Made by a program: the position numbers and the translations under genes | Notes under the pieces: generated by a model | What the model saw: the letters and a program-made list of their open reading frames with translations, nothing else | Databases searched by the model: none | Told to the model about the DNA's origin: nothing | Assembly: GCA_900754085.1 (NCBI GenBank) | Contig: CAAEBO010000057.1 | Span: 7,578-71,577 of the forward strand | DNA: 64,000 bases | Origin: Clostridia bacterium | GTDB lineage: Bacteria > Bacillota > Clostridia > TANB77 > CAG-508 | Reading direction: 5' to 3' | Shown here: piece by piece, positions 38,833 to 60,301 of the stretch | Numbering within the stretch: the stretch's first letter is position 1 | Layout of the letters: each line of letters begins with the position of its first letter

Positions 38833-38874
38833 GAATTTATAGTTGTTAGAATTAGATAAAAAATTTGGGTGAAA

Positions 38875-39762
38875 ATGGTGGAAGAAAATAAAGAAGGAAA
38901 AATTAAGAACAATAGCAATAAAATAGTATTTATATATAGAATTGTAGTATCAATTATAATGATTATTAGTATAATATTAGTATATATATTAAATCATTTA
39001 GGAGAAAGTAAGGAAGTTGATGCTATGGCAAATGTAATTAATCAAAACAGTATTACTGAAACAAATACTGTTGGAGAAGAACATATTACATCTGAAGAAA
39101 ATTTAAAAAAACTTAATGATTGGCGTTTAATTTTAGTGAATTATGAAAATGAAATGCCAAAAGATTATAATCCACCACTAAGCAGTATAGAAAAAGAAAG
39201 ACAATTTGATTCTAGAGCAATAAATAGTTTATTACAAATGATGATAGACATGAATAATGCAGGAATAACCCATATATGGGCACAATCTGCATACAGAAAC
39301 CCTAAAAAACAAGAGCATTTAATTCAAGAGAGTATACAAGAACATTTAGCAGAAGGAAAAACGCTAGAAGAAGCAAAAGCATTAACAGCAAGGTCTATAG
39401 GAGAACCCTATAAAAGCGAACATAACTTAGGATTAGCAGTAGACTTTAACGATGTAAACTATGAATTTGAAGAAGAAAAAGCATTTCCATGGCTTGTAGA
39501 AAACGCAGAAAACTATGGCTTCATACTAAGATATCCAAAAGACAAAGAAGAAATAACCAAAATAAAATACGAACCATGGCATTGGAGATATGTAGGAATA
39601 GAAAACGCAAAAGAAATAAACAAATTAGGATTTTGTTTAGAAGAATATATACAATACTTAAAAACTGGGAATCGGGATTCGGGGACGGACCTTAAAATCC
39701 CGGTTCATTTTTTTGTAAAAAATTTAAAAATTTTGCTAGATAAAAAATATATATTGTGGTAA
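38875..39762 (+). CDS. VanY-like D-alanyl-D-alanine carboxypeptidase (peptidase M15B); the 3' end runs through a palindromic repeat
   Basis: SAYRNPKKQ, SEHNLGLAVDF, EPWHWRYVG. The last ~30 codons (from about 39662) are encoded by repeat copy A and the following AT-rich DNA. Confidence 0.8.
   Translation: MVEENKEGKIKNNSNKIVFIYRIVVSIIMIISIILVYILNHLGESKEVDAMANVINQNSITETNTVGEEHITSEENLKKLNDWRLILVNYENEMPKDYNPPLSSIEKERQFDSRAINSLLQMMIDMNNAGITHIWAQSAYRNPKKQEHLIQESIQEHLAEGKTLEEAKALTARSIGEPYKSEHNLGLAVDFNDVNYEFEEEKAFPWLVENAENYGFILRYPKDKEEITKIKYEPWHWRYVGIENAKEINKLGFCLEEYIQYLKTGNRDSGTDLKIPVHFFVKNLKILLDKKYILW
39674..39701 (+). repeat. Palindromic dispersed repeat, copy A
   Basis: GGGATTCGGGGACGGACCTTAAAATCCC. 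Confidence 0.85.
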
Positions 39763-39801
39763 AATAACAAATGCGCTAAAAAGAAAGAAGGGAGAATAAA
39801 G

Positions 39802-41550
39802 ATGATAAAAGAATTATCAAAATATGTAAAACAATACAAAAAGTATGCAATTTTAACACCAATTATGGTTATTTTGGAAATCATAATGGAAGTTATAATT
39901 CCATATCTTATGGCAAAAATCATAGATGTAGGAATACAAAACAATGATTTAAACTATATTATAAAAATGGGAATAATGCTTGTTGTATCTGCAATAATGT
40001 CATTAATATTTGGAGTACTTTCTGGAAGGTTTGCAGCAACTGCGTCAGCAGGATTTGCGAAAAACTTAAGACAAGGAATGTTTTACAACATACAAAATTT
40101 TTCATTTACAAATATAGATAAATTTTCTACATCAAGTTTAGTAACAAGACTTACAACAGATGTAACAAATGTTCAAAATGCATTTCAAATGATTATAAGA
40201 TTATTAGTAAGAGGACCAGTGATGATAATATTTGCCTTAATTATGGCATTTTCAATAAATAAAAATTTATCATTTGTATATATAGCAACAATGCTTCCTC
40301 TTGCAATTTTACTAGCATTTATATCTTTTAAAGCTCATCCTTATTTTGAAAAAGTATTTAAAAAATATGATGAATTAAATAGAGTAGTTGGAGAAAATTT
40401 AAGTGCTATTAGAGTTGTAAAATCATTTGCAACAGAAAAATTTGAAGAAGATAAATTTGAGAAAGTAAACTTATTAGTATATAAATTATTTAAAAAAGCA
40501 GAGAAAATTGTAATATTTAATAGCCCATTAATGCAAATTGCGATATATGGCTGTGTATTACTATTATCTTGGCTTGGGGCAAAAGCAATTGTAGTAGGAA
40601 GTATGCAAACAGGAGAACTTTCTAGCTTAATTACATATGCTTGGCAAATTCTTTCAAGTTTAATGATGCTTTCTATGGTATTAGTTATGATAATAATATC
40701 ACAATCATCTGCGGAAAGAATTATAGAAGTAATTAATGAGGATTCAACTATAAAAAATAAAGAAAATCCTATAAAAGAAATTAAAGATGGAAGTATAGAA
40801 TTTATAGATGTTGATTTCCAATATGATGATGCAAAAGCAAATGAAATGCTACCGTTAGAAGATATAAACTTAAAGATAAATTCTGGAGAAACTGTTGGAA
40901 TTTTGGGTGGAACAGGTAGCTCTAAAACTTCTTTAGTAAACTTAATACCTAGATTGTATGATGTAAAATCAGGCTTTGTAAAAGTTGGGGGAGTAGATGT
41001 AAGAAACTATGAACTTAATGCTTTAAGAGATGAAGTTGCTATGGTATTACAAAAAAATGTACTATTTTCTGGAACTATTGCAGAAAACTTAAGATGGGGA
41101 AATAAAGATGCTACAGACGAAGAATTAATAGAAGCTTGTAAATTATCACAAGCAGATAGTTTTATACAAGAATTACCAGATAAATATAATACTGTATTAG
41201 ACCAAGGTGGGACAAATGTTTCTGGAGGTCAAAAACAAAGAATTTGTATTGCCAGAGCATTACTAAAGAAACCTAAAATACTAATTTTAGATGACTCTAC
41301 TAGTGCAGTAGATACAAAAACAGATTCATTAATAAGAAAAGCTTTTAAAGAAAAAATACCAAATACAACAAAAATTATAATAGCACAAAGGGTAAGTTCT
41401 ATTATAGACGCAGACAAAATAATTGTTATGGATAATGGTAAGATAGATGGAATTGGCACATCTGAAGAATTACTAAAAACAAATAAAATTTATAAGGAAG
41501 TATATGAATCTCAAATGGGAGGAGATGACAAAGAAAATGAAAAAGAGTAG
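39802..41550 (+). CDS. ABC exporter, fused permease-ATPase (heterodimer subunit 1)
   Basis: Six-TM N-terminal half. GGTGSSKTS Walker A, VSGGQKQR signature, ILILDDSTSAVD Walker B. Confidence 0.9.
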   Translation: MIKELSKYVKQYKKYAILTPIMVILEIIMEVIIPYLMAKIIDVGIQNNDLNYIIKMGIMLVVSAIMSLIFGVLSGRFAATASAGFAKNLRQGMFYNIQNFSFTNIDKFSTSSLVTRLTTDVTNVQNAFQMIIRLLVRGPVMIIFALIMAFSINKNLSFVYIATMLPLAILLAFISFKAHPYFEKVFKKYDELNRVVGENLSAIRVVKSFATEKFEEDKFEKVNLLVYKLFKKAEKIVIFNSPLMQIAIYGCVLLLSWLGAKAIVVGSMQTGELSSLITYAWQILSSLMMLSMVLVMIIISQSSAERIIEVINEDSTIKNKENPIKEIKDGSIEFIDVDFQYDDAKANEMLPLEDINLKINSGETVGILGGTGSSKTSLVNLIPRLYDVKSGFVKVGGVDVRNYELNALRDEVAMVLQKNVLFSGTIAENLRWGNKDATDEELIEACKLSQADSFIQELPDKYNTVLDQGGTNVSGGQKQRICIARALLKKPKILILDDSTSAVDTKTDSLIRKAFKEKIPNTTKIIIAQRVSSIIDADKIIVMDNGKIDGIGTSEELLKTNKIYKEVYESQMGGDDKENEKE

Positions 41551-43390
41551 AAAAAATACAGCTTTTAGATTACTAAAATATTCTATGGGAGGATATAAAT
41601 TACAGTTCGTAATAGTTTTAATTACTATAATAATAAGTGCTACAACAAGCGTTATAGGAATACAATTTATTCAAAAACTTATAGATAATTACATTATTCC
41701 ACTTATAGGTAACCAAAACCCTAACTATACATCATTATTACATGCTATAGTTACTATGGGAGGTATATATTTAATAGGAATTATAGCTACATATATTTAT
41801 AACAGATTAATGTTAAATATAACACAAGGAACACTTAAAAAAATCAGAACAGATATGTTTAAACATATGCAGAAATTGCCAATAGGTTACTTTGACAGCA
41901 ATAATCATGGGGAAATTATGAGTACATATACAAATGACGTAGATACTTTAAGAGAAGCAATAAGCCAAAGTATACCTCAAATTTTTTCAGCTATAGTTTC
42001 TATGCTTGCAATATTAATATCTATGATTATAACAAATGTATATTTAACAGGAATTGTTCTTGCAATGGTTATAATAATGATGTTTGTATCTAAATTTTTT
42101 GCAAAACATAGTTCAAAACATTTTATAAATCAACAAAAAAATATTAGTAAGGTTGATGGATATATAGAAGAGATGATGAATGGGCAAAAAGTAGTTAAAG
42201 TATTTTGCTACGAAGAACGTTCTAAACAAAAATTTGACGAATTAAATGAAGAGTTATTCCAAAGTAGTAAAAAAGCCAATTCTTATGCAAATACATTGAT
42301 GCCATGTATAATGAATATTGGAAATATAGGTTATGTACTAGTTGCAGTAATAGGAGGAATTTTAGCAGTAAACCAAGTTCTTACAATAGGTAGTATTGCA
42401 GCATTTTTACAATATATAAAGGCTTTTACAAATCCATTAGGACAAGTTTCACAACAAATTAATTTTATTGCTATGGCTTTAGCTGGAGCAGAAAGAATAT
42501 TTGACTTAATAGATGAAAAAGTAGAAGAAGATGATGGCTATGTAACTCTTGTAAATGCTAAAGAAGAAAACGGAAAAATAGTAGAAGTTGAAGAGAGAAC
42601 AGGCCTTTGGGCATGGAAACATCCACATAGTGATGGAAGCATTACATATACTAAATTATGTGGAAATGTAGAATTTGAAGATGTAAATTTTGGTTATGTT
42701 AAAGACAAACAAATTTTATATAATATAAGTTTAGATGCAAAAGAAGGTGAAAAAGTTTCTTTTGTAGGACCAACGGGAGCTGGAAAAACTACTATTACAA
42801 ACTTAATAAATCGTTTTTACGATATTCAAAGTGGAAAGATTAGATATGATGGAATTAATATAAATAAAATGAAAAAAGACGATTTAAGAAGATCACTAGG
42901 AGTAGTTTTACAAGACACACATTTATTTACTGGAACAATAAAAGAAAATATAAAATATGGAAATATGAATGCAACAGATGAAGAAGTTATTGCTGCAGCG
43001 AAACTTGCAAATGCAGATAGATTTATAAGACATTTGCCACACGCGTATGATACAGAAATAACAGGTGATGGAGAAGGCTTATCTCAAGGGCAAAGGCAAT
43101 TACTAGCCATTGCAAGAGCAGCACTTTATAATCCACCAGTATTAATATTAGATGAAGCAACAAGTTCTATAGATACACGTACAGAGAAAATTGTACAAGA
43201 CGGAATGGATAAATTAATGAAAGGTAGAACAGTATTTGTTATTGCACATAGATTATCTACAATAAGAAATTCAGATTTAATAATGGTTCTAGACCATGGA
43301 CATATTATAGAAAGAGGAAATCATGACGATTTAATAAAAAATAATGGAATGTATTATGGCCTATATACTGGAGCTATAGAGATAGAGTAA
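41504..43390 (+). CDS. ABC exporter, fused permease-ATPase (heterodimer subunit 2); the start may be ATG 41537
   Basis: GPTGAGKTT, LSQGQRQL, VLILDEATSSID. GGGAGGAG at 41517-41524 favours the ATG at 41537. Confidence 0.9.
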   Translation: MNLKWEEMTKKMKKSRKNTAFRLLKYSMGGYKLQFVIVLITIIISATTSVIGIQFIQKLIDNYIIPLIGNQNPNYTSLLHAIVTMGGIYLIGIIATYIYNRLMLNITQGTLKKIRTDMFKHMQKLPIGYFDSNNHGEIMSTYTNDVDTLREAISQSIPQIFSAIVSMLAILISMIITNVYLTGIVLAMVIIMMFVSKFFAKHSSKHFINQQKNISKVDGYIEEMMNGQKVVKVFCYEERSKQKFDELNEELFQSSKKANSYANTLMPCIMNIGNIGYVLVAVIGGILAVNQVLTIGSIAAFLQYIKAFTNPLGQVSQQINFIAMALAGAERIFDLIDEKVEEDDGYVTLVNAKEENGKIVEVEERTGLWAWKHPHSDGSITYTKLCGNVEFEDVNFGYVKDKQILYNISLDAKEGEKVSFVGPTGAGKTTITNLINRFYDIQSGKIRYDGININKMKKDDLRRSLGVVLQDTHLFTGTIKENIKYGNMNATDEEVIAAAKLANADRFIRHLPHAYDTEITGDGEGLSQGQRQLLAIARAALYNPPVLILDEATSSIDTRTEKIVQDGMDKLMKGRTVFVIAHRLSTIRNSDLIMVLDHGHIIERGNHDDLIKNNGMYYGLYTGAIEIE

Positions 43391-43444
43391 AATATTATAT
43401 TAAAAAAATACCCATAAAATATGAAAAAAAGAGCTAAAATAACA

Positions 43445-43473
43445 GGGATTTTAAGGTACGTCCCCAAAATCCC
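43445..43473 (-). repeat. Palindromic dispersed repeat, copy E (inverted orientation)
   Basis: GGGATTTTAAGGTACGTCCCCAAAATCCC. The stem extends to CAGGGATTTT / AAAATCCCTG. Confidence 0.8.
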
Positions 43474-43491
43474 TGCAGAAAAGAATGTTGA

Positions 43492-43520
43492 TTGACAAAT
43501 AAAACTAATTAAGTTATTAT
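43492..43520 (+). promoter_or_regulatory. Sigma-A-type promoter of the asp23 operon
   Basis: TTGACA (43492-43497), 17-nt spacer, TATTAT (43515-43520). Confidence 0.6.
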
Positions 43521-43577
43521 ATAAATAGGTATATTGGAAATAATTTATATTAAATAATATTTTAAGGAGGTATTATT

Positions 43578-43961
43578 ATGGACGAAGAAAAAATTGTAGA
43601 ACAAGAAATTAATGTGGCTAATGAAGTTGTGGCTACTATTGCTGGTATGGCGGTTTCTAAGGTTGATGGTGTTGCAAAAATGGCAGGAGGATTTACAGAA
43701 GGTCTTAAAGCCATAGGTGGAAAAAAACAAATGTCAAGAGGAATTAAAGTAGAAGCAGATGGAGAGAATGTAAAGATAGAAATAAATATTATTGTAAGAT
43801 ACGGAGTAAACATAAGAGAAGTAGGAAAGAATATTCAAGAAAAAGTTAAAGAAGAAGTAGAAAATATGACAGGAAATAAAGTTGACAGAGTTGTTGTTAA
43901 TGTTCAAGGTGTAAAAGTTGATGATGATACAGAGGAAAAGATAGATAATATGGAGGAATAA
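43578..43961 (+). CDS. Asp23/Gls24-family alkaline shock protein
   Basis: VANEVVATIAGMAVSKVDGVA ... VRYGVNIREVGKNIQEKVKEEVENMTG. Confidence 0.85.
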   Translation: MDEEKIVEQEINVANEVVATIAGMAVSKVDGVAKMAGGFTEGLKAIGGKKQMSRGIKVEADGENVKIEINIIVRYGVNIREVGKNIQEKVKEEVENMTGNKVDRVVVNVQGVKVDDDTEEKIDNMEE

Positions 43962-43965
43962 TGTT

Positions 43966-44508
43966 ATGGACCAAATAAAAGATTTGTTAAAGAAATCTGG
44001 TACGTCTAATATATTGGTATCAATAATTTTTGGACTATTTGGAGTAATATTATGCATTTTGAATGAAGGAGCAGTAAAAGTAATTTCTTGTTTAATAGGT
44101 TTGCTATTTATAATAATAGGAGTGGCAAGACTAGTAAACTATGTAAAAGGAAGAGGAATAGGTGAACATTTTAATTTTGACTTATTGTGTGGCTTAGTTG
44201 CAACAGTTCTTGGGGGTGCAGCTATAATTTATACAGATGCAATAGGTATAATATTAAGATTAATAGTAGGAACATGGATTGTATATAGTGGTATAACAAG
44301 AACTTATTTATCTTTAAAATTAAAAGTTTTTAATTCATCAATATGGATAATTAGTTTAGTATTATCAATTTTAATGGTTATATTTGGTATATATATTATG
44401 CTAAATAGTGGGGCAATTGTAACATTAATTGGTTCATTAATGATTGCATATGCAATAATAGATATAATAGAAAGTATAATTTTTATAAAGAAAATAAAAC
44501 AATTTTAA
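43966..44508 (+). CDS. DUF308/HdeD-like membrane protein
   Basis: Six hydrophobic helices. Typical position downstream of asp23. Confidence 0.6.
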   Translation: MDQIKDLLKKSGTSNILVSIIFGLFGVILCILNEGAVKVISCLIGLLFIIIGVARLVNYVKGRGIGEHFNFDLLCGLVATVLGGAAIIYTDAIGIILRLIVGTWIVYSGITRTYLSLKLKVFNSSIWIISLVLSILMVIFGIYIMLNSGAIVTLIGSLMIAYAIIDIIESIIFIKKIKQF

Positions 44509-44512
44509 AAAG

Positions 44513-44568
44513 AGAATACAAGATTACATAGTATAATTTAGTACTAAAAATCTTGTATTCTTTTTTTT
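44513..44568 (+). terminator. Terminator of the asp23 operon
   Basis: AGAATACAAGATT / AATCTTGTATTCT, a 13-bp stem followed by T8. Confidence 0.8.
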
Positions 44569-44768
44569 GAATAAAAAATTTTGAACAATTATTTTATTTA
44601 CAAATAAAACACAATTAGGGAATAATTTGGATATAATTAACATGTAAAATATATCCATAGTAACCAGAAAGGGGTGACGCTAAATTAGAAAATAATATTA
44701 TTAAATCTCAAAAAGAGATATTTAAAAACGAAAAGATAACAATAAAAAGCGACATTTTTAATAAATTG

Positions 44769-45326
44769 ATGTCAGTATACTCACTAAGCATAGAACAAAT
44801 TAGAAAAATTGTTGAAGAGTGGGAGGTGAAGTACAAGGAAATAAATTTAATAGATCATGTTAAATATAGAATTAAAAGTCCTAAAAGTATAATAAACAAA
44901 ATGAAAAAGAAAAATTATGAATTAAATTATTCAGAACTTATAGAAAAAATAAATGATGTAGCAGGAATTAGAATTATTTGTCCGTTCAAAGAAAATGTTT
45001 ATATAGTAAGACAACTAATAATGGAAAATCCAAACATACATATATTAGATGAAAAAGATTATATTCAAAATCCTAAAAAAAGTGGTTATTCCAGTCTACA
45101 TTTAATTATAGAAATACCTGTAGAAACAGAACTTGGAAAAGTATATGTGAAGGCAGAAATACAAATAAGAACAATGGCTATGGATTTTTGGGCTAGTTTG
45201 GAACATGAACTTAAATATAAAAATAATAACATTACCAAAGCAGCTTCTAAGAAACTATTAAAAGCAGCTAAAGTGATGAAAAAACTAGATGCTGAAATGT
45301 CAGTAATAGCAAATGAAATACGTTAA
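44769..45326 (+). CDS. Small alarmone synthetase (RelQ/RelP-type GTP pyrophosphokinase); start uncertain
   Basis: DVAGIRIICPF, GYSSLHLII, EIQIRTMAMDFWASLEHELKYK. Confidence 0.8.
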   Translation: MSVYSLSIEQIRKIVEEWEVKYKEINLIDHVKYRIKSPKSIINKMKKKNYELNYSELIEKINDVAGIRIICPFKENVYIVRQLIMENPNIHILDEKDYIQNPKKSGYSSLHLIIEIPVETELGKVYVKAEIQIRTMAMDFWASLEHELKYKNNNITKAASKKLLKAAKVMKKLDAEMSVIANEIR

Positions 45327-45348
45327 ATTCCCCTTTTATTAAATATAT

Positions 45349-45388
45349 AAAGCTACCTTAAGAAAAATATTCTGAAGGTAGCTTTTAA
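45349..45388 (+). terminator. Terminator after the alarmone synthetase gene
   Basis: AAAGCTACCTT / AAGGTAGCTTT, a perfect 11-bp stem. Confidence 0.7.
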
Positions 45389-45486
45389 AATTGAATAAAT
45401 TATTTGTATTTTTATAAATAATATAGTAATATAGTGTAGTATATGATAAAATAATAAAACAATGCGAAAGAAAAGGAGTGTAATAT

Positions 45487-47826: not shown

Positions 47827-47837
47827 TAGGTGATGTA

Positions 47838-48638
47838 ATGCAAAATATATTCTTAAATATATTTTTAATAATAGGAATTTTATTAATATATAGTGGAGTA
47901 TCTGGAATAGCAACAGATATATATAGAAAAAGAAAAATACTAAATAGAACATATTTAATACTAATGCTAGGAATTATGGTGGTTTTTTCTGCCATAATTC
48001 CAAATTTAATTGATAACAAAATAACCTTATTTATAAAATATATATCAATATATTTTACTATTACTTTTGTTATATTTTGTATATTAAGTATAATAGTTAA
48101 TCTTAATATTGGTAAAAAAACATATAATGCAATAATTGTTTTAGGTGGATATTTGCTAAATGGTAACCAATTAACAAGAGCACTAACAAAACGATTAAAC
48201 TTAGCTATAAAATTGTATAATAATCAAAAAGAAAAACCTAAAATTATTGTATCTGGAGGAAAAATAAGAGAAGAAACAATATCTGAAGCAGAAGTAATGG
48301 AACAGTATTTAGTAAGTAAAAATATTCCGATAAAGGATATTATAAAAGAGAATGAATCTAAAAATACTTTAGAAAATTTTAAGTTTTCTAAGAAAAAACT
48401 AGAAGAACTTAATATAAATGAAAATATAGCATTTGTAAGTAATAATTTTCATATATTAAGGTCAAAAATATATTCATTAAAGTGTAAAATAAAAGCTAAT
48501 GGAGTAGGTGCAAAAACTTTATGGTATTATTTTATAGAAGCTTTTATAAATGAATATTTAGCACTTGTGTTATTGTTTAAAAGTATATTAATTATATATT
48601 GCATTATATCAATTTTTTTAACAATAATAGCAAAATAA
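47838..48638 (+). CDS. YdcF/ElyC-like DUF218 membrane protein
   Basis: N-terminal TM helices, then IIVLGG ... IIVSGG ... SEAEVM pattern. Confidence 0.65.
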   Translation: MQNIFLNIFLIIGILLIYSGVSGIATDIYRKRKILNRTYLILMLGIMVVFSAIIPNLIDNKITLFIKYISIYFTITFVIFCILSIIVNLNIGKKTYNAIIVLGGYLLNGNQLTRALTKRLNLAIKLYNNQKEKPKIIVSGGKIREETISEAEVMEQYLVSKNIPIKDIIKENESKNTLENFKFSKKKLEELNINENIAFVSNNFHILRSKIYSLKCKIKANGVGAKTLWYYFIEAFINEYLALVLLFKSILIIYCIISIFLTIIAK

Positions 48639-48670
48639 AGTTAGGTATATAACAATGAAAGGAATAAAAA

Positions 48671-49270: not shown

Positions 49271-50388
49271 TGAAAATATTATTAGTAATGGACCAATTCG
49301 AAAATGCAAATAATGGTACAACAATTTCTGCAATAAGGTTTGCAGATGGACTAAAAAAGAGAGGACACGAAGTAAGAATATTAAGTACAGGAACAGAAGG
49401 AGAAAATAAATATGTGGTAAAAACATTAAAATTACCAATAGGTGTTTCTAATATTATAAAATCGCAAGGAATGTGCTTTGGTGTACCAGATAAGGAGATA
49501 ATAAGAAAAGCAATGGAAGGGGTAGATATTGTACATTTTTATATGCCTTTTTGGCTTTCTAAGGCTAGTTTAAAAATTGCAGAAGAATTAAAAATTCCTC
49601 ATACAGCTGCTTTTCATGTTCAACCAGAAAATATAACATATACAATAAAATTAGGAAATAATAAAATAGTTAATAAAACAATATATAGTAAGTTTAGAGA
49701 TGATTTCTTTAATAAATTTAGACATATACATTGCCCAAGTAAATTTATTGCGAATCAATTAGAAGAAAATAATTATACTGCAAAGCTACATGTTATTTCT
49801 AATGGAATACAAAATAAATTTCAGTTTACTCCAAAAGAGAAACATGATAAAATAGTAATAACTATGGTAGGCAGATTATCTGGTGAAAAAAGACAAGACT
49901 TATTATTTGAAGCAATAAAAAAATCTAAATATGAAAAGAAAATTCAATTAGTACTGGCAGGAAAAGGACCTAAATACAAACAATATGTTCAATTAGGAAA
50001 AACATTAACAAATGAACCAATTATAACATTTATAGATGAAAACAAATTATTAAAGTTATTAGCAAATACAGATTTATATGTACATACATCAGATGCAGAA
50101 ATAGAGGCTATTTCTTGCTTAGAAGCAATTGCTTGTGGTAATGTACCTATTATAGCAAATAGCGAAAGATCTGCAACACCACAATTTGCTTTAGACGAAA
50201 GAAGTTTATTTGAAGCAGGTAACAGTGATGATTTAGCAAAAAAAATAGATATGTGGTTATATAACACAGAAGAATTAAATAATATGAGAAAAATATATAG
50301 TGAAAGCGCAGAAGAATATAGAATAGAGAAAAGTATGGAGAAAATAGAGGAGATGTTTAATGATGAAATTAAAGAATACAATATTTAA
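49270..50388 (+). CDS. GT4-family glycosyltransferase (glycolipid-synthase-like)
   Basis: GT-B pattern with C-terminal E..(S/G)....EA.A.G.P. GTG start after AAAGGAG. Confidence 0.7.
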   Translation: MKILLVMDQFENANNGTTISAIRFADGLKKRGHEVRILSTGTEGENKYVVKTLKLPIGVSNIIKSQGMCFGVPDKEIIRKAMEGVDIVHFYMPFWLSKASLKIAEELKIPHTAAFHVQPENITYTIKLGNNKIVNKTIYSKFRDDFFNKFRHIHCPSKFIANQLEENNYTAKLHVISNGIQNKFQFTPKEKHDKIVITMVGRLSGEKRQDLLFEAIKKSKYEKKIQLVLAGKGPKYKQYVQLGKTLTNEPIITFIDENKLLKLLANTDLYVHTSDAEIEAISCLEAIACGNVPIIANSERSATPQFALDERSLFEAGNSDDLAKKIDMWLYNTEELNNMRKIYSESAEEYRIEKSMEKIEEMFNDEIKEYNI

Positions 50389-51070
50389 TTTTTTCGCAAA
50401 CATATTTTATTATCTTATTGCAGTACCAATAGTGTTTTTAATAGATAAAATATTTCTGGACTATAAAGTAGTAGGAAGAGAGAATATAAAGAAAGTTCCA
50501 GAAGGAAAAATAACAATATCTAATCATATGCATTATTTAGATTGCACAATGAATGGGCTTGCAAATTTTCCCGATTACTCATATTTTGTTACATTGGAAT
50601 CAAATTTTAAAATACCTATAGTAGGACCATTAATAAAACTATTAAGAGCAATTCCAATACCAACAAAAATAGAAGAGAAAAAGCAATTTTACAAATACAT
50701 TTCTAAACTTTTACAAGAAGGAGAAACAATACATATATATCCAGAAGGAGAATTACGTGTGTACGAAAAAGAATTAAATAAATTCCATAAAGGTGCATTT
50801 GCAATGGCAGTAGAAAACAATGTACCAATAATTCCAACAGTAATAACAACACATAGCCCAGAAGGAATTTATAAATACATAAAAACAAAGCCAGTAATGA
50901 CGCATGTAATATTAGAACCAATATATCCAGATTTATCAATAGAAAACAAATTAGAAAGAATAGAAAAATTAAAACAAGAATCATATTATAGAATGAAAGA
51001 AGTTCTAGAAAGAACAGAATTATGTTATGAAATAGGGATCGAGGGACGGTCCTTAAAATCCCTTTTTTAA
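50360..51070 (+). CDS. plsC: 1-acyl-sn-glycerol-3-phosphate acyltransferase-like protein; the last 12 codons and the stop are supplied by a palindromic repeat
   Basis: SNHMHYLDC (HX4D), IYPEGE. The C-terminal GIEGRSLKSLF is encoded by repeat copy B. Confidence 0.75.
   Translation: MMKLKNTIFNFFANIFYYLIAVPIVFLIDKIFLDYKVVGRENIKKVPEGKITISNHMHYLDCTMNGLANFPDYSYFVTLESNFKIPIVGPLIKLLRAIPIPTKIEEKKQFYKYISKLLQEGETIHIYPEGELRVYEKELNKFHKGAFAMAVENNVPIIPTVITTHSPEGIYKYIKTKPVMTHVILEPIYPDLSIENKLERIEKLKQESYYRMKEVLERTELCYEIGIEGRSLKSLF
51035..51062 (+). repeat. Palindromic dispersed repeat, copy B
   Basis: GGGATCGAGGGACGGTCCTTAAAATCCC. Its 3' arm also pairs with the downstream GGGATTTT (51056-51083 palindrome). 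Confidence 0.85.
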
Positions 51071-51126
51071 AAAAGGGATTTTAAAAATATCTTTGGAGTT
51101 AGCATATATAAAAAAATAGTGATAAG

Positions 51127-51161
51127 AAAAAGCAATGTAATAAAAAAACACATTGCTTTTT
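51127..51161 (+). terminator. Terminator upstream of argS
   Basis: AAAAAGCAATGT / ACATTGCTTTTT, a perfect 12-bp stem. Confidence 0.75.
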
Positions 51162-51164
51162 TTG

Positions 51165-51193
51165 TTGCAATATATAAGCATTTATTATATAAT
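51165..51193 (+). promoter_or_regulatory. Sigma-A-type promoter of argS
   Basis: TTGCAA (51165-51170), 17-nt spacer, TATAAT (51188-51193). Confidence 0.65.
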
Positions 51194-51227
51194 AAGCACG
51201 GAAAATAGGATAGGATAAGGTGATTTT

Positions 51228-52934: not shown

Positions 52935-53013
52935 AAAAGTAGTTTTGCTACATAAGAAATTAATTGATAATTACACGTAATAAGGTAGTTTAACCGTATT
53001 ACATAAGAAAAGA

Positions 53014-53042
53014 GGGATTTTAAGGACCGTCCCCGAAATCCC
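53014..53042 (-). repeat. Palindromic dispersed repeat, copy C (inverted orientation)
   Basis: GGGATTTTAAGGACCGTCCCCGAAATCCC. Confidence 0.85.
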
Positions 53043-53061
53043 TGTGAAGGAGGAAAAAAAT

Positions 53062-54426
53062 ATGGGAAAATATTTTGAAACAGATGGAATTAGAAGAATT
53101 GCAAATACGGAGTTAACTCCAGAATTGGTTTATAAAGTTGCAAAGGCAGGAGCTTATGTATTAGCTAAGCATTCTGACCACAGCCCAACAATTTTAATTG
53201 GTAGAGATACTAGAATTTCTGGAAGTTTAATAGAGAGTGCAATGACTGCAGGTTTTTTAAGCTATGGAGCAAATGTAAAACAATTAGGTGTTTTGCCAAC
53301 ACCAGCTGTTGCATATTTAACTAGAAAACTAAAAGCAGATGCAAGTGTTGTAATATCTGCATCTCATAATACTTATGAATTTAATGGCGTAAAATACTTT
53401 AGTAATGAAGGTACAAAAATACCAGACAATATAGAAGCAGAAATAGAAGAAGTTATGGACTCTGGTAAATTAGATGAGCTTACAGCGTGTAACGATAAAA
53501 TAGGAATATCTGAAAACGCAGAAGAATTAGTAGACGAATATGTATATTTCTTTAGAAAAACATTTGAAGAGATTATAGAAAAGTATAATACAGATGATTT
53601 TAAAGTTGTAATAGATACAGCAAATGGAGCAACATATGAAGTTGCAGAAAAAGTATTTTCTAAATTAAAAATTAATCACAAAATTATAAATAATGCTCCT
53701 AATGGAATAAATATTAATAAAAACTGTGGATCAACACATTTAGAAATGCTTCAAAAATATGTAGTAGAAAATGGCTATAGCTTAGGAATAGCATATGATG
53801 GTGATGGCGACAGATGTTTATTAGTTGATGAAAATGGTGAAGTTATAGATGGTGACAGAATACTAGCAATTGTTTCAAACTATATGAAACAAAAAGGTAC
53901 ATTAAAGAAAGATACTTTAGTTGCAACAGTTATGAGTAATTTGGGATTAGATATATATTCTAAAGAAAATAATATTAATTTTGTTAGAACAAAAGTAGGA
54001 GATAGATATGTATTAGAAGAAATGAAGAAAAACGGATATAACCTAGGAGGAGAACAATCTGGACATATTATATTCTTAGATTACAATCCAACAGGAGATG
54101 GAATATTAACTTCATTAATGTTTATTTCTATAATGTTAGAAAAAGCAGAAAAGGCAAGCAAACTAGAAGAAATAATAAATATATATCCTCAAGTACTTAT
54201 AAATGCAAAAGTTTCTAACGAAAAGAAATATGATTTTGACAAAGATGCAGTTATTAGAAGTGCAATAGAAGAAGTAGAAAGAGAATTTTCTGGAAGCGGA
54301 AGAGTTTTAATAAGAACATCTGGAACAGAACCATTAGTAAGAGTTATGATAGAAGGTAAAGACCAAGAATATATAACTGAAAAAGCTAAATCTATAGCAG
54401 AATTAATAGAACAAAGATTAAGCTAA
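53062..54426 (+). CDS. glmM: Phosphoglucosamine mutase
   Basis: MGKYFETDGIRR, ISASHNTYEFNGVKYF, DGDGDR. GAAGGAGG Shine-Dalgarno 7 nt before ATG 53062; the ORF-track GTG 53044 lies in the repeat. Confidence 0.95.
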   Translation: MGKYFETDGIRRIANTELTPELVYKVAKAGAYVLAKHSDHSPTILIGRDTRISGSLIESAMTAGFLSYGANVKQLGVLPTPAVAYLTRKLKADASVVISASHNTYEFNGVKYFSNEGTKIPDNIEAEIEEVMDSGKLDELTACNDKIGISENAEELVDEYVYFFRKTFEEIIEKYNTDDFKVVIDTANGATYEVAEKVFSKLKINHKIINNAPNGININKNCGSTHLEMLQKYVVENGYSLGIAYDGDGDRCLLVDENGEVIDGDRILAIVSNYMKQKGTLKKDTLVATVMSNLGLDIYSKENNINFVRTKVGDRYVLEEMKKNGYNLGGEQSGHIIFLDYNPTGDGILTSLMFISIMLEKAEKASKLEEIINIYPQVLINAKVSNEKKYDFDKDAVIRSAIEEVEREFSGSGRVLIRTSGTEPLVRVMIEGKDQEYITEKAKSIAELIEQRLS

Positions 54427-54452
54427 AAAATAAATAAAGGAAGATGATGTAA

Positions 54453-56039
54453 ATGGATAGAAAAACATATTATATAACTACTCCAATTTATTATCCAAGT
54501 GGAAAATTCCATATTGGTACAGCATATACAGAGGTATTTGCAAATACAATGAAAAAATATAAGCAAAAAAGGGGATATGATGCATATCTTTTAACAGGAC
54601 TAGATGAACATGGGCAAAAAGTTCAAACTGTTGCAGAGAATGCTGGAAAGACTCCACAAGAACACACTGACGAAATGGCAGAAAACGCAAAAAAACTTTG
54701 GAAAAAGATGAATATAGAATATGATGATTTTATAAGAACAACAGAACCAAGGCACTATAAAATTGTAGAAGATATTTTTGAAAAACTTTTAGCAAAAGGG
54801 GACATTTATAAAGGCGAATATGAAGGATGGTATTGTATGCCATGTGAAACATATTTTACAGAAACACAATTAGTAGATGGAAAATGTCCAGATTGCGGTA
54901 GAGAAGTTAAGAAAATGAAAGAAGAAGCATATTTCTTTAATATGAAAAAATATGCAGATAAACTAATACAATTTTATGAAGAAAATCCAAAATTTATAGA
55001 ACCAGAATCTAGAAAAAATGAAATATTTAACAATTTCTTAAAACCAGGTTTAGAAGATTTATGTATAACAAGAACTACATTCGACTGGGGTGTAAAAGTA
55101 AAAAGTGATCCTAAACATGTTGTATATGTGTGGCTTGATGCACTAACAAACTATATTACAGCTTTAGGCTATGGATCTAATAATGAAGATTTATTTAACA
55201 AATATTGGCCAGCAGACTTACATGTTGTTGGTAAAGATATTATAAGATTTCATGGAATATATTGGCCAATTTTCTTAATGGCATTAGATTTACCACTTCC
55301 AAAGAAAATTTATGCACATGGATTTATAATGATGAAAGATGGTAAAATGTCTAAATCTAAAGGAAATGTAATTTATCCAGAAATTTTAGTGGATAAATAT
55401 GGCATAGATGCCACAAAATATTTCTTAATTAGAGAATTTCCATATGGGCAAGACACAATATTTACACCAGAGGGTTTTGTTGAAAGATTTAATTATGATT
55501 TGTGTAATGATTTAGGAAACTTATTAAATAGAACAATAGGAATGATAAATAAATATTTTGATGGAAATATTTATAAATATAATGGTCACCAAAATGAACC
55601 TGACGAAGAAATAGAAAAATATTCATTAGAACAAATAAGAATTGTAGAAGAGAAAATGGAAAATTTACATTTAAATGAAGCATTAGCAGAAATTTGGAAC
55701 TTAATTTCTAGAACAAATAAATATATAGACGAAACAGCTCCATGGTTACTTGCAAAAGATGAAGATATGCAAGAAAAATTAAAGTCTGTAATGTATCATT
55801 TATGTGAAAACTTAAGAAAAGTTGCGATATTAATTAGTCCATTTATGGAAGAAACATCAAATAGAATATTTAATCAATTAGGATTAAATAACGAAAATCT
55901 ACAAACATGGGAAAGTTTATATGAATATGATAAAATTCCTGACTCTACAAAGGTAATAGAAAAGGGAGAACCTCTATTTGTAAGGTTAGATTTAGAAGAA
56001 GAAGTTTCTTATATAAAAGAACAAATGTCAAAAAAATAG
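54453..56039 (+). CDS. metG: Methionine--tRNA ligase (short form)
   Basis: [20 protein letters not shown], zinc knuckle CMPCE...[13 protein letters not shown]. Confidence 0.95.
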
Positions 56040-56099
56040 AATTTACATGAGTATATTAAATTTAAAGAGAATAACTATAATTTAAGGAGGAAAATTTAT

Positions 56100-56414
56100 T
56101 TGGAATTAGACCTATTAAATAACATTATTAGGGGGCAAAACGATATTGATATTAATCAATTTAAAAGGGAGCTAACAAATAAATTAGAAGAAATGGAAAA
56201 TAGATTTACAGTTGATAGAATTGAAAATGATATAGCAATTTTAGAAAATCGTGATACAGGCGAAATGCTTAATGTAAATAAGAGTGATTTACCACAAGAA
56301 TTAAAAGAAGGAACAATTTTAAAAATGGTTAACAACAAATATGAAATAGACAACGAGGAACAAAAAAAAGTTGAAGACAGAATACGAGAAAAAATGAATA
56401 AATTGTGGAAATAG
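56100..56414 (+). CDS. DUF3006-like small protein (TTG start)
   Basis: FTVDRIENDIAILENRDTGEMLNVNKSDLPQELKEGTIL. AAGGAGG Shine-Dalgarno 9 nt before the TTG. Confidence 0.6.
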   Translation: MELDLLNNIIRGQNDIDINQFKRELTNKLEEMENRFTVDRIENDIAILENRDTGEMLNVNKSDLPQELKEGTILKMVNNKYEIDNEEQKKVEDRIREKMNKLWK

Positions 56415-56441
56415 AACAAAAGAAAGAATGGAGTAAGTAAC

Positions 56442-57461
56442 ATGGGAAATAAAGATGAAAATGGAAAAATTAGTCTTTGGGAAAAGTCAAAATTAGGGAA
56501 AAAAACGAAATATTATAAAATACACACATGGCTTAGTAGACTAGCTTCACTTATAATTTTAATCGTTTTACTAGTATTAGGAAAAAACTATTGGGAAACA
56601 CACGATTACAACAACTATATAGAAAATACATTAGGAAATAAGATTCAAGATGATGTTATAATAAATGATATAGAAAAAACAAATACAATAGAAACAGAAG
56701 CGGTAGCAGATGGAAATCTTAGAGTGTATTATATAGATGTAGGACAAGCAGATAGTACATTAGTTATAGATAAAGATAAAACCATGCTAATAGATGCAGG
56801 AACAAATGAAGCTGGAGATACTGTAGTAAAATTTTTAAAGGATAAAGGAATAACTAAAATAGATTACTTAATAGGAACACATCCTCATGAAGATCACATT
56901 GGTGGGCTAGATGATGTTATAAATAATTTTGACATTGGAGCAATTTATATGCCAAAAATGCAGACTACAACAAAAACTTTTGAAGATGTTTTAGACAGCA
57001 TTGCAAATAAAAATTTACAAGTTACAACTCCAGTTGTTGGAGATACATTTAAATTAACAAATGCCAATTGTACGATAATGGCTACAGATACAGAAGACAC
57101 AAAAGATAATATAAATTTATCTTCTATTGTTCTAAGAATGACTTATGGAGGAAATAGTTTCTTATTTATGGGAGATGCAGAAGCAGAAGTAGAGGAAAGT
57201 AGAACATGGCAACCAGCAGATGTATTAAAAGTTGGACATCATGGCTCAAGAACATCTTCTACACAAAACTTTATTCTTCAAGTAATGCCATCTATATCAG
57301 TTATACCAGTAGGAAAAGATAATTCATACAATTTGCCAAATAAAGAAACATTAGAAAAACTAAGTTCTGTAGGGTCAAAGATTTATAGAACAGATGAAGA
57401 CGGTAATATTCTTGTTGTAAGTGATGGCTCTAATATAAAAGTGGAAACAAAAGTAAAATAG
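56442..57461 (+). CDS. Membrane-anchored MBL-fold hydrolase (ComEC C-terminal-domain-like)
   Basis: VYYIDVGQADS, GTHPHEDHIGG, VGHHGS. Confidence 0.8.
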   Translation: MGNKDENGKISLWEKSKLGKKTKYYKIHTWLSRLASLIILIVLLVLGKNYWETHDYNNYIENTLGNKIQDDVIINDIEKTNTIETEAVADGNLRVYYIDVGQADSTLVIDKDKTMLIDAGTNEAGDTVVKFLKDKGITKIDYLIGTHPHEDHIGGLDDVINNFDIGAIYMPKMQTTTKTFEDVLDSIANKNLQVTTPVVGDTFKLTNANCTIMATDTEDTKDNINLSSIVLRMTYGGNSFLFMGDAEAEVEESRTWQPADVLKVGHHGSRTSSTQNFILQVMPSISVIPVGKDNSYNLPNKETLEKLSSVGSKIYRTDEDGNILVVSDGSNIKVETKVK

Positions 57462-57473
57462 AAGGAGAAAGAA

Positions 57474-58937
57474 ATGAAAGAATTTATAAAAAAGCATTTA
57501 AATAAATTAAACATAGGGCTTATTGTATTAATTGCAATAGCACCTATGCTTCTATGCTTTAATGATAGTTTATGGTTTGACGAGGCATATTCTGTAGGAA
57601 TTGCAAGACAGCCATTGGGGAATTTATTAATTTCTACAATTAATGATGTTCACCCAATATTGTATTATGTATTACTTAAATTATATTCATTAGTGTTTGG
57701 AACTAGTGTAATAGCACTAAGAATATTTTCGGTAATTCCAATAATTTTATTAGCTATATTTTCATTTGTAAAAATAAGAAAAGAATTTGGAGAAAAAGTA
57801 AGTTTTTATTTTAACTTAGTTCTTTTATTATTACCAGTTACAATTCATTATGGTTCGCAAATAAGAATGTATAGTTTAGCAATGCTTTTTGTTACAATTA
57901 CAGCAGTATATGCATACTTAGCTTATAAAAATAACAAGAAAAAGGATTGGATAATATTTGCAATAGTAAGTGTTTGTAGTGCGTATACACATTATTTTGC
58001 ATTATTTACTATTGGAATTATAAATATTTTATTACTTTTCTTTATAATAAGAGAAAGAAAAGAACTTTTAAAAAGATGGTTTATATATGGTGCTATACAA
58101 ATAGTTTGTTATTTACCAGGAGCGCTAATATTCTTTATGCAATCATCTAGAGTAGCAAATGGATTCTGGATAAGTGTACAATACCCAGATATTATAACTC
58201 AAATTATAGAATTTTTCTTTTTAGATAGCATTAATTCTGGCTTGCCAGCTGTATTTGGTGTATTTATAGTAGTATATATGATTTTAAGAGTACATAAATT
58301 ATATTTGGAAGATAAAAAGAAAATAAGACCAGTTACAATAGCATTAACTACTTGCGGATTAGTAATACTTGTAACATTATTAATTTCTTTTGTAAGAGCA
58401 GTATTTATACCAAGATATATGTTACCAATGCTAGGACTATTTATATTTGCGCTAGCATATGTATTATCTGTCGAAAAAAGTCGAATTGTAAAAATAATAA
58501 TATGTACAGGGTTAATAGGATTAAGTATTTGGAATGGGACTACATTATGGAACAAGTCTTATTCTGAAGAAAATAGCAAACCTATAGATGCAATTAAAGC
58601 AGAAATACAAGAGAATGACATTTTTGTATATACAACAATTGGGCCTAGTAGTTCTGTTGCTATAGAATTTGATAATAATAAACAATATTTTTATAATAAA
58701 GATAATTGGACTGTAGAAAAGGCTTATGGAGCTTTTGCACCACAAATGAAAGTTATAAATAACTTAGAAGAGATTGAAAATTATGCTGGTAGGATTTGGG
58801 TAATAGATGCTGCAGATTCAAATATGTATGATTATATTAACGAAATGGAAGGAACAAATATTATAAAAAATAAAGAAGAATATAGTCATCCATTTAGCGG
58901 TGATAAATTTATAATATCATTATTTGAAAAAAAATAA
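57474..58937 (+). CDS. GT-C family membrane glycosyltransferase (ArnT/PMT_2-like)
   Basis: Polytopic. DEAYSV motif in the first loop. Confidence 0.6.
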   Translation: MKEFIKKHLNKLNIGLIVLIAIAPMLLCFNDSLWFDEAYSVGIARQPLGNLLISTINDVHPILYYVLLKLYSLVFGTSVIALRIFSVIPIILLAIFSFVKIRKEFGEKVSFYFNLVLLLLPVTIHYGSQIRMYSLAMLFVTITAVYAYLAYKNNKKKDWIIFAIVSVCSAYTHYFALFTIGIINILLLFFIIRERKELLKRWFIYGAIQIVCYLPGALIFFMQSSRVANGFWISVQYPDIITQIIEFFFLDSINSGLPAVFGVFIVVYMILRVHKLYLEDKKKIRPVTIALTTCGLVILVTLLISFVRAVFIPRYMLPMLGLFIFALAYVLSVEKSRIVKIIICTGLIGLSIWNGTTLWNKSYSEENSKPIDAIKAEIQENDIFVYTTIGPSSSVAIEFDNNKQYFYNKDNWTVEKAYGAFAPQMKVINNLEEIENYAGRIWVIDAADSNMYDYINEMEGTNIIKNKEEYSHPFSGDKFIISLFEKK

Positions 58938-59017
58938 AAAAAATTTAATTGTACGACAAGTTTCGACAAAAAATATCGACACTATATGCTATAATTTGTA
59001 TATAGGAGGGATGCGAT

Positions 59018-59179
59018 ATGGATGTTTCTTTAAAAATTCAAAAACATAGAGCGAAATTAGAACAAATGATTTTAGACAAAGAGGACTATAATGATATTGT
59101 GAGGCAAAGCCAAAAATTGGATAAATACATAAATATCGCAATGGAACAAATGATGTCGAAATCAAGAAGTAATAACTAA
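59018..59179 (+). CDS. Spo0E-family sporulation regulatory (aspartyl-phosphate phosphatase-like) protein, 53 aa
   Basis: MDVSLKIQKHRAKLEQMILDKEDYNDIVRQSQKLDKYINIAM contains the SQxLDxxI signature. AGGAGGG Shine-Dalgarno 7 nt upstream. Not in the ORF track. Confidence 0.65.
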   Translation: MDVSLKIQKHRAKLEQMILDKEDYNDIVRQSQKLDKYINIAMEQMMSKSRSNN

Positions 59180-59208
59180 AAGCACTATTCTATAGAATAG
59201 TGCTTTTA
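59178..59208 (+). terminator. Terminator after the Spo0E-like gene
   Basis: AAAGCACTATTCTA / TAGAATAGTGCTTT palindrome. Confidence 0.7.
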
Positions 59209-59313
59209 GTTAAATCATTAACAAATTAGAAAATTAACTAATAATATGATTGACATTATAAAGAATAAGAAATAAAATAAGAAAGAAAATGAATTTAAGG
59301 AAGGTGATTTTTT

Positions 59314-60243
59314 ATGCCATTTGTAACAACAAAGGAAATGTTTGAAAAATCTATGAAGGAGAAATTTGCAATAGGTGCATTTAATATTAATAATATGGAG
59401 TTTGTACAAGCAATAATGGATGCAGCAGCTAAAGAAAATTCACCAGTTATATTACAAACTTCAGCAAGTGCTATAAAATATGCAAGAATACCATATTTAA
59501 AGAAAATGATAGAAGCAGGTCTAGAAGAACATGATATTCCAGTAGCATTACATTTAGACCATGGTCCAGACTTCGAAACTTGTAAGATGTGTGTAGACAA
59601 TGGTTATACATCAATAATGTTTGATGGTTCAAAATACGACTTTGAAACAAATATTAAATTAACAAAAGAGGTTGTAGACTATGCACATGCACATGGTGTA
59701 GTAGTAGAAGCAGAACTTGGAAAATTAGCAGGAATTGAAGATGATGTTAATGTTTCAGCAGAAGATGCAATGTATACAGACCCAGAAGAAGCAAAAGAAT
59801 TCGTAGAAAGAACAGGTTGCGATTCTTTAGCAATAGCAATTGGAACAAGCCATGGAGCTTACAAATTTAAAGGTGAAGCAAAATTAAGATTTGATATTTT
59901 AGCTAAAATAAAAGAAAAAATACCAAATACTCCAATAGTATTACATGGAGCTTCAACAGTTATACCAGAACTTGTAGAAACTTGTAACAAATATGGAGCA
60001 GACTTACCAGGAGCAAAAGGTGTTCCAGATGAAATATTACACGAAGCAAGTACTTTAGGAGTATCAAAAATAAATGTAGATACAGACTTAAGATTAGCAA
60101 TGACAGCAGGAATAAGAGAAACATTTGTAGAAAGTCCAAATGTATTTGATCCAAGAAAATACATGGGAAAAGGAAGAGACCTAATAGAAGAAACAGTAGC
60201 ACATAAAATAAGAGAAGTATTTGGATCAAGCAACAAAGCATAA
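59314..60243 (+). CDS. fba: Class II fructose-bisphosphate aldolase
   Basis: FAIGAFNINNMEF, LHLDHG, GTSHGAYKF, LHGAS. Confidence 0.95.
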   Translation: MPFVTTKEMFEKSMKEKFAIGAFNINNMEFVQAIMDAAAKENSPVILQTSASAIKYARIPYLKKMIEAGLEEHDIPVALHLDHGPDFETCKMCVDNGYTSIMFDGSKYDFETNIKLTKEVVDYAHAHGVVVEAELGKLAGIEDDVNVSAEDAMYTDPEEAKEFVERTGCDSLAIAIGTSHGAYKFKGEAKLRFDILAKIKEKIPNTPIVLHGASTVIPELVETCNKYGADLPGAKGVPDEILHEASTLGVSKINVDTDLRLAMTAGIRETFVESPNVFDPRKYMGKGRDLIEETVAHKIREVFGSSNKA

Positions 60244-60245
60244 AA

Positions 60246-60273
60246 GGGATCGGGGGACGGTCCTTAAAATCCC
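60246..60273 (+). repeat. Palindromic dispersed repeat, copy D
   Basis: GGGATCGGGGGACGGTCCTTAAAATCCC, starting 3 nt after the fba stop codon. Confidence 0.85.
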
Positions 60274-60301
60274 TCCTTTATATTTATAAAGGAGGGATTT
60301 T
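60266..60301. terminator. Bidirectional terminator between fba and the peroxiredoxin gene; it shares its 5' arm with repeat copy D
   Basis: AAAATCCCTCCTTTATA ttt? no: AAAATCCCTCCTTTATA / TATAAAGGAGGGATTTT, a perfect long stem. Confidence 0.75.

Follow-up and report, generated by a model that had tools for sequence, protein, structure and literature searches.

The DNA analysed here (the window) is a stretch of 64,000 nucleotides (64 kb) from the genome assembly of a Clostridia bacterium (contig CAAEBO010000057.1, positions 7,578 to 71,577). Its G+C content is approximately 27%, and its genes lie almost all on the + strand. The window carries five copies, A to E, of a hairpin repeat of 28-29 nt, and the genes adjoining them are housekeeping genes. 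All five were found exactly at the coordinates and on the strands reported by an initial annotation, which had been made from the letters alone. In a test against 100 dinucleotide-preserving shuffles, no shuffle contained any match (0 of 100). A profile hidden Markov model (HMM) built from 169 copies in other genomes recovered only A to E in the window, with E-values of 3.7e-10 to 7.3e-8, and found no copy in positions 1 to 39.6 kb, which include a mobile element at approximately 2-26 kb that the annotation had rightly described as free of the repeat.

Copy A (39674-39701, + strand, GGGATTCGGGGACGGACCTTAAAATCCC) lies within the last 29 codons of a VanY-like carboxypeptidase open reading frame (ORF; 38869-39762) and encodes the residues RDSGTDLKIP; its stem reaches outward to approximately 39670-39705 and is followed by seven T at 39708-39714. 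Copy E (43445-43473, - strand, reverse complement GGGATTTTGGGGACGTACCTTAAAATCCC) is flanked by the stop codon of an ABC-transporter gene (43390) and a promoter-like site (43492-43520) of the Asp23 gene. Copy B (51035-51062, + strand, GGGATCGAGGGACGGTCCTTAAAATCCC) forms the final 11 codons of a PlsC-like acyltransferase ORF (50360-51070), encoding GIEGRSLKSLF. A perfect 32-nt palindrome (51053-51084, + strand, TTAAAATCCCTTTTTT/AAAAAAGGGATTTTAA), which looks like a terminator, is made up of the right arm of B and the vestige of an inverted second arm (GGGATTTTAA). Copy C (53014-53042, - strand, reverse complement GGGATTTCGGGGACGGTCCTTAAAATCCC) sits between the argS stop codon (52934) and the ribosome-binding site and start of glmM. 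Copy D (60246-60273, + strand, GGGATCGGGGGACGGTCCTTAAAATCCC) begins 2 nt past the fba stop codon, with the convergent genes fba (+) and ahpC (-) on either side. A second hairpin (60266-60301, + strand, AAAATCCCTCCTTTATA-T-TTATAAAGGAGGGATTTT) combines the right arm of D with an inverted GGGATTTT further downstream, and it probably serves as a bidirectional terminator or is what remains of a doublet. The placement at gene ends or intergenic sites described by the annotation is refined in that A and B are inside the 3′ ends of ORFs and not after them.

The five copies are all mutually different, and the window contains only singletons, two of which (B and D) have vestigial second arms. The outer stem, which the annotation had given as GGGATTT/AAATCCC, is GGGAT(T)/(A)ATCCC. 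The loop was correctly seen to be conserved, and its conservation extends across the transposase family described below; it is not simply unpaired, however, because it is partly self-pairing. The RNA of the family's consensus, taken in the + orientation, adopts an almost uninterrupted stem of 13-14 bp with G-U pairs (-16.7 kcal/mol, z = -4.5).

Two observations concern the surroundings of these copies. In other strains, a T-to-A difference at window position 51068 converts the TAA stop codon that follows copy B into AAA and lengthens the PlsC call to 281 aa, as against 236 aa; in either call, the repeat supplies the C-terminus. Such repeats can mislead gene callers and add repeat-encoded tails to proteins. 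In addition, a perfect 40-nt palindrome (59173-59212, TAACTAAAAGCACTATTCTATAGAATAGTGCTTTTAGTTA) lies between a small SpoOE-like gene, which it follows, and fba, which it precedes. This hairpin is of the ordinary terminator type and is unrelated in sequence to the repeat family.

A dispersed hairpin family of gut Clostridia

A scan of one genome per species with the pattern GGGACGNNCCTTAAAATCCC returned at least 114 loci, each designated below by an L number where it must be named. Among the matches listed, 112 loci are from approximately 30 species of uncultured Clostridium or Clostridia known from metagenome-assembled genomes (MAGs) of the human, chicken, mouse and rabbit gut; the other two of the 114 are chance matches in unrelated phyla. 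More than 25 separate loci among the matches listed come from a single related MAG. The listed loci and the window together contain 183 core matches, or 176 once the chance matches and double-strand duplicates are removed. The repeat is nearly absent from viruses (2 matches in 2.9 million viral contigs). Thus, many further copies exist outside the window, as the annotation had anticipated, and these hairpins belong to a large, dispersed, mostly intergenic, REP-like family (REP, repetitive extragenic palindrome) of low-GC gut Clostridia.

The consensus unit is N-GGGATTNRG-GGACG(T/G)TCC-TTAAAATCCC-N′, and the apparent invariance of its right arm is partly an ascertainment effect because this arm was fixed by the search pattern. 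The unit has a length of 28-29 nt, an asymmetric bulge and G-T/A-C positions, and the fold of the family consensus is significant. The two base pairs that adjoin the core stem on its outer side covary, with Watson-Crick pairs in 115 of 153 copies at one (maximum in shuffles, 104) and in 60 of 153 at the other (maximum in shuffles, 58).

Among 181 copies whose placement was recorded, 103 have co-directional genes on either side, 27 convergent genes and 7 divergent genes; a further 7 overlap the ends of ORFs and 37 are at locus edges, so that approximately 95% of the classifiable copies are intergenic. Between co-directional genes, a copy is situated at a median of 21 nt past the upstream stop codon and 106 nt ahead of the next start. 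The singletons in this setting point along the gene direction in 48 cases and against it in 15, and at least five T occur in the next 8 nt after the unit in 39% of copies.

Close pairs are common in the related genomes, and their polarity is almost fixed: 38 of 43 pairs are '+-', 4 are '--', 1 is '++' and none is '-+'. The tight doublet has the form unit-TTCTAGAA-inverse unit. Composite inverted elements of 125-150 bp are built as unit-spacer-GGGAnnnnGGGACACTCC...loop...inverse, in which GGGAnnnnGGGACACTCC is the second sub-unit. In the composite elements displayed, neither flanking direct repeats nor target-site duplications can be seen. This arrangement matches the REPIN/BIME organisation of REP sequences, that is, inverted doublets (REPINs) and mosaic clusters (BIMEs). 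The annotation had called the family REP- or MITE-like (a MITE is a miniature transposable element with inverted repeats). The likeness to REPs and REPINs is borne out, and the likeness to MITEs of the DDE type is not, given the lack of target-site duplications.

No Rfam family matched the window at the gathering threshold, and a permissive scan gave only chance-level matches; the annotation had not recognised a named family in the repeat either. The literature that was searched contained no description of the repeat, which is not proof of a new family, and the family has apparently not been described so far. The window contains no tRNA or tmRNA genes. Three other readings were dropped: a CRISPR-like one because there are no spacer arrays, a riboswitch-like one because of the missing Rfam match, and an Xer/dif-like one (11-6-11) because copy number and covarying stems do not suit a duplex recombination site.

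Clustering of all ORFs at the 114 loci listed yielded no protein family that recurs beside the repeats, and a multi-copy transposase adjacent to them is therefore unlikely.

A transposase between inverted copies

When E. coli RayT was used as a query, a weak match (E = 0.025) to one ORF was obtained, L073:258-1055. This ORF lies between two inverted copies of the repeat, at 87-114 (+) and 1073-1100 (-) of the same locus, and the same bracketed layout is present in L069 and L119-L122. The encoded protein (L073:273-1058) matches Pfam Y1_Tnp with E = 4.8e-10 and 40 bits (cutoff 23), NCBIfam REP_Tyr_transpos with E = 2e-18, and NCBIfam IS200 with E = 0.004. Its family comprises 561 clusters at E ≤ 1e-5 or 1,423 at E ≤ 1e-20, depending on the query used, and its members have approximately 256 aa compared with 165 aa for RayT. 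The HUH motif is NHAH. Across 97 sequences its histidine H63 never varies, and H61 is kept in at least 90%; the motif YIHNNPVKA likewise has three invariant residues, Y121, N125 and P126, and the motif YIxxNPVK is common to the Clostridia enzyme and E. coli RayT. Because the sequence similarity to RayT and to its structure 4ER8 is weak, a comparison of folds was needed. The AlphaFold2 model (pLDDT 84.9) has as its top Foldseek match in the PDB chain 4ER8_A, which is TnpA_REP in complex with such a hairpin of REP type (E = 2e-6, target TM 0.71), followed by the TnpA proteins of ISDra2 and IS608. Residues 180-259 of the model form a C-terminal helical domain resembling a helix-turn-helix (HTH), with a weak match to sigma-70 region 4; homologues carry precomputed assignments to PF04545, PF13384 or PF02796.

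The 64-kb window itself contains no homologue of the transposase. The gene of the window's species was located through the conserved neighbour PSP1 after two direct protein searches had missed it. Among the contigs that encode the exact ArgS of the window is one of 1,223,609 nt, and the PSP1 protein P0232, which is 91% identical to the PSP1 beside the transposase in L119, is encoded on a contig of that length. The loci with P0232 are L228-L231, and L228 is from the same run as a contig that is 100% identical to window positions 1-1554. The order in these loci is PSP1, Fer4, REP(+), a Y1_Tnp ORF of 256-264 aa, a degenerate REP(-), a 104-aa ORF, REP(-) and PFOR. The bracketing REP(+) (6222-6252) and REP(-) (7718-7748) are perfect 29-mers identical to copy E, and a 29-mer identical to copy C is found at L228:10261-10292, 2.5 kb from the bracket. 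The 10.9 kb that surround the transposase of this species contain 4 copies, in addition to the 5 in the window. The annotation had proposed a search for a RAYT- or IS200-like gene (RAYT, REP-associated tyrosine transposase), and a RAYT-type Y1 transposase between inverted repeats is what was found, including in the window's own species.

In four species-level lineages, the transposase is found at one shared site, PSP1-Fer4-[gene]-PFOR. This position does not vary among many samples, and the proteins at the site are 54-60% identical to the L073 protein. The shared syntenic site in L119, L225 and L073 indicates vertical inheritance. An additional conserved ORF of approximately 104 aa, without a Pfam match, is always found 3′ of the transposase (L228:7341-7655; L119:3855-4181; L073:1125 onward), and in the window's species it lies within the bracket of the two perfect repeats.

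A survey of the flanks across the family covered 80 further metagenome loci whose transposases are relatives of 26-59% identity. Nearly all of these loci have an upstream hairpin and its downstream inverse, in which a stem specific to the lineage is followed by (N)GGGGACG(G/T)... and then by the complementary stem. The stem is GGGATTT in the family of the window and TGAACTTT in L117 and L082, and other lineages have TGAACACTT, ATTGCCA, TGTCAA, GTGCCAA, CAGGCAA, GAGTCA, AAGGAAAAG and CCTGTTTTT. Perfect stems of at least 5 bp around the loop GGGGACR are present on both flanks in 40 of 67 transposase loci, and stems of at least 6 bp surround 38% of GGGGACR sites compared with 4.3% of random positions. 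A loop that is kept while the stems change in a compensatory manner is as predicted if the Y1 enzyme recognises a folded single strand. The annotation had argued that a conserved loop implies specific recognition, and this pattern in the transposase family makes that inference a sound one.

Two further types of hairpin were observed. A stem-swapped variant, TGAACTTTAGGGACGG(A/T)CCTTAAA(A)GTTCA, has the loop of the window's repeat and is found at L117:3747-3776 and 4892-4921 and at L082:6958-6986 and 7585-7613. What it encloses is the transposase in L117 and, together with a canonical copy, an unrelated 144-aa ORF in L082. A second hairpin repeat family, of the GGTTCCGG / GTCCCCACTGGTTCCGGG type, is present in related genomes (L027:6311-6393; L077:1700-1960 and 2740-2900) and flanks another paralogue of the transposase in L077.

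Origin and mobility of the repeats

According to our preferred reading, the hairpins are REP-type, non-autonomous repeats that belong to a single-copy, chromosomally fixed HUH/Y1 transposase of the RAYT/TIRYT type with an extra C-terminal HTH domain, and we consider this reading very probable. By analogy with TnpA_REP and the TnpA proteins of IS200/IS605 elements, the enzyme would bind the hairpin in single-stranded DNA, for example at a replication fork, and would read the loop motif together with the asymmetric bulge or mismatch to which the palindrome owes its polarity. The same comparison suggests that a cut would be made nearby by the catalytic Y121 of YIHNNPVKA and the HUH motif NHAH, and that REP singlets and doublets may thereby be copied or moved without a target-site duplication. 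The copies are found just past or across stop codons and are rich in G+C in a genome of 27% GC; they probably also serve, in a secondary role, as hairpins at the 3′ ends of transcripts (terminators or mRNA stabilisers).

Past spread of the repeats is well supported by differences between species. At an orthologous site whose neighbouring genes are 91% identical at the aa level, L025 has this repeat and L027 has the different GGTTCCGG / GTCCCCACTGGTTCCGGG family; a difference of the same kind separates L065 from L067. L019 and L086 have an orthologous copy in common, the centre of which has decayed in L086. Moreover, L117 contains the entire REP-transposase-REP unit between PMT_2 and QueH; in the window's species, whose QueH protein is 69% identical to that of L117, PMT_2 and QueH overlap with nothing between them.

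Several observations weigh against the preferred reading. The score of the L073 protein against REP_Tyr_transpos, 66.7 bits, is under the curated cutoff of 80, and in a PDB sequence search with the family profile the match to 4ER8 was weak (E = 0.049). No GTAG or CGTC tag was found at the ends of the palindromes, which are flanked by (C/T)A-GGGAT... and ...ATCCC-T(G/T/C)T. The 48:15 bias of the singletons fits transcription and replication alike, since no case was seen in which the GC skew opposed the direction of the genes. Within the species of the window, the transposase of L231 is frameshifted (L231:6355-7139) and split into ORFs of 129 and 140 aa, and that of L228 (6355-7149) has an in-frame expansion of an EADA repeat; an intact ORF of 256 aa, such as L230:6356-7126, is kept in most strains. 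Finally, no empty sites were found at B, C and D in approximately 20 strain contigs that are 98-99.9% identical to the window. Insertion polymorphism between strains, which the annotation had put forward as a sign of mobility, is thus not seen at these copies; the variation seen is between species only, and ongoing mobility in the window's species is unsupported.

These last observations bear most directly on the possibility that the repeats are fossils, which were once spread by the transposase, are now immobile in the window's species and are harmless or co-opted, while the gene is decaying or repurposed. The fixation of B, C and D in all strain contigs examined, the mutual differences of five window copies that are singletons with two vestigial second arms, and the frameshift in L231 all favour this explanation, and RAYTs are generally viewed as domesticated single-copy genes (PMC5581495). 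However, the 29-mers on either side of the transposase remain perfect and match the distant copy E exactly, copy C likewise has an identical partner at L228:10261, and such identity of distant copies points to either recent copying or strong constraint. The ORF is also intact in most strains. We therefore lean against fossil status but regard it as a possibility to be taken seriously. A purely host-derived origin, in which the repeats are terminators or mRNA-stabilising hairpins that resemble each other through functional constraint or a common RNA-binding factor without any transposition, appears improbable. Although the median distance of 21 nt past stop codons, the orientation of singletons (48:15), the T-rich downstream sequence in 39% of copies, the seven T after A, and the fusion of B and D to strong terminator-like palindromes are what terminators would be expected to exhibit, 15 of the 63 co-directional singletons are reversed and the doublets contain both orientations. 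Copy C lies directly upstream of a ribosome-binding site within an operon-like gene pair, and the ordinary terminator at 59173-59212 of the same window has an unrelated sequence. Doublets of fixed polarity, composites, and inverted copies that bracket a Y1 transposase in many species would all be left unexplained.

Two other explanations were weighed. The composites of 125-150 bp with long inverted arms could suggest MITEs or solo terminal inverted repeats of a classical insertion sequence (IS) with a DDE transposase, and IS elements are present in the species, such as the IS3-family insertion in L123. However, target-site duplications are not evident in the composites displayed, every unit is itself a hairpin, no DDE transposase recurs beside the repeats at the 114 loci listed, and the L123 insertion is not associated with the repeat sequence; we consider this origin most unlikely. 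Equally unlikely are sites for a protein that binds double-stranded DNA (a regulator, nucleoid protein or recombinase) or DNA-uptake sequences, even though the unit is a near-palindrome of 28-29 bp and the uptake sequences of other bacteria also occur as inverted pairs after genes. Across lineages, the stems covary and the loop is conserved, which is the signature of a folded single strand and not of a duplex operator. Furthermore, a regulon-like association of the copies with promoters is not seen (only 7 of 181 are between divergent genes), and evidence related to competence was not found.

The preferred reading, that of REP-type repeats dependent on a fixed RAYT/TIRYT-type transposase, may be extended, although we hold the extension to be rather doubtful. 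In this wider form, the Clostridia and other anaerobes would possess a distinct and very widespread class of REP transposase (more than 1,400 protein clusters) that is aided by its HTH domain and reads GGGGACGK in the loop, not a tag at the foot of the stem, and the stems would therefore be free to diverge between lineages. The repeats would also have been co-opted as punctuation at gene ends. The stop codons that they carry in two of the three frames and their terminator-like hairpin would then account for their location on or after stop codons and for the rewriting of protein C-termini.

Relation to known systems and neighbouring elements

To our knowledge, nearly all work that characterises REP/RAYT systems has been done in Proteobacteria. 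The system described here resembles the REP/REPIN-RAYT systems (REPtrons) of Escherichia and Pseudomonas in several respects. The repeats are short, imperfect, extragenic palindromes near the 3′ ends of genes; they occur as singlets, inverted doublets and mosaic clusters; and an apparently single-copy, vertically inherited HUH/Y1 gene is situated between inverted copies of its own repeat, without target-site duplication. E. coli TnpA_REP (RayT, PDB 4ER8) is also the closest match to the predicted fold. However, the host is a low-GC Clostridia bacterium and not a proteobacterium, the stem foot lacks GTAG, and GGGGACG(G/T) is present in the loop instead. Compared with E. coli RayT, the Clostridia protein is approximately 90 residues longer, has a C-terminal HTH domain and scores below the RAYT cutoff of NCBIfam, as given above.

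The IS200/IS605 transposases (IS608, ISDra2) also have the HUH/Y1 fold and provide the second-best structural matches; they likewise act without target duplication and recognise imperfect hairpins on single-stranded DNA, as the enzyme studied here may do by analogy. In contrast to those elements, the gene is not a multi-copy IS but apparently a single-copy gene, whose syntenic site is the same in four or more species, its match to the NCBIfam IS200 model is marginal (E = 0.004), and its hairpins have spread without it.

Three published classifications are relevant. REP/REPIN association has been described for RAYT groups 2 and 3 only, and group 1 has been noted in Clostridia (Bertels et al. 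2017, PMC5581495). TIRtrons are RAYT-like genes (TIRYTs) between inverted repeats that contain GGGGWSAS, and some of these repeats are self-complementary and moderately repeated, as dimers or clusters (Di Nocera et al. 2013, PMC3733652). TnpA_REP subclass 2.1 has C-terminal HTH domains, and its members were reported to lack REP-like sequences nearby (Quentin et al. 2018, PMC6006769). Because it combines a RAYT-like Y1 protein carrying a C-terminal HTH with inverted flanking repeats that share a G-rich motif, the system appears closest to the TIRtron/subclass 2.1 type. The second sub-unit of the composites (GGGGACAC/GGGGACAG) fits GGGGWSAS, whereas the main unit (GGGGACGG/GGGGACGT) mismatches it at position 7. 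Unlike the TIRtrons and subclass 2.1 as described, the flanks here are clear hairpins with lineage-specific stems, and they belong to a high-copy REP-like family.

In the main surveys, RAYT relatives of the Clostridia type were not linked to high-copy repeats (PMC5581495), or formed an HTH subclass without REP-like neighbours (PMC6006769). A repeat is now paired with its enzyme in abundant, uncultured gut Clostridia with small genomes, and the pairing offers a simple, testable rule of recognition in which the loop is conserved and the stems are free.

The repeats also have a practical effect, because they break short-read assemblies: Logan contigs end exactly at the end of copy C (53042), and one Logan contig and one contig from the European Nucleotide Archive (ENA) start inside copy B. 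In one assembly (L124:1971-2400), the sequence runs from copy C into dut, carD and dnaG, and not into glmM; this junction reflects either a chimera made at the repeat or a genuine rearrangement between copies.

Mobile elements of other types are present in this species. On a 1.22 Mb contig, an IS3-family insertion of 1.45 kb with HTH_Tnp_1 and rve ORFs (L123:1463-2914) is located between copy B and argS, and it is absent from the window (site 51142-51145). The mobile element at approximately 2-26 kb of the window encodes ParB (3054-4004), a SpaA-repeat adhesin of 1,510 aa and an SNF2/polyvalent protein of 2,320 aa. It also carries genes for an erm-type rRNA adenine dimethylase (16820-17734), an ANT(6)-type streptomycin adenylyltransferase (18127-18984) and two large serine recombinases (22402-25753).

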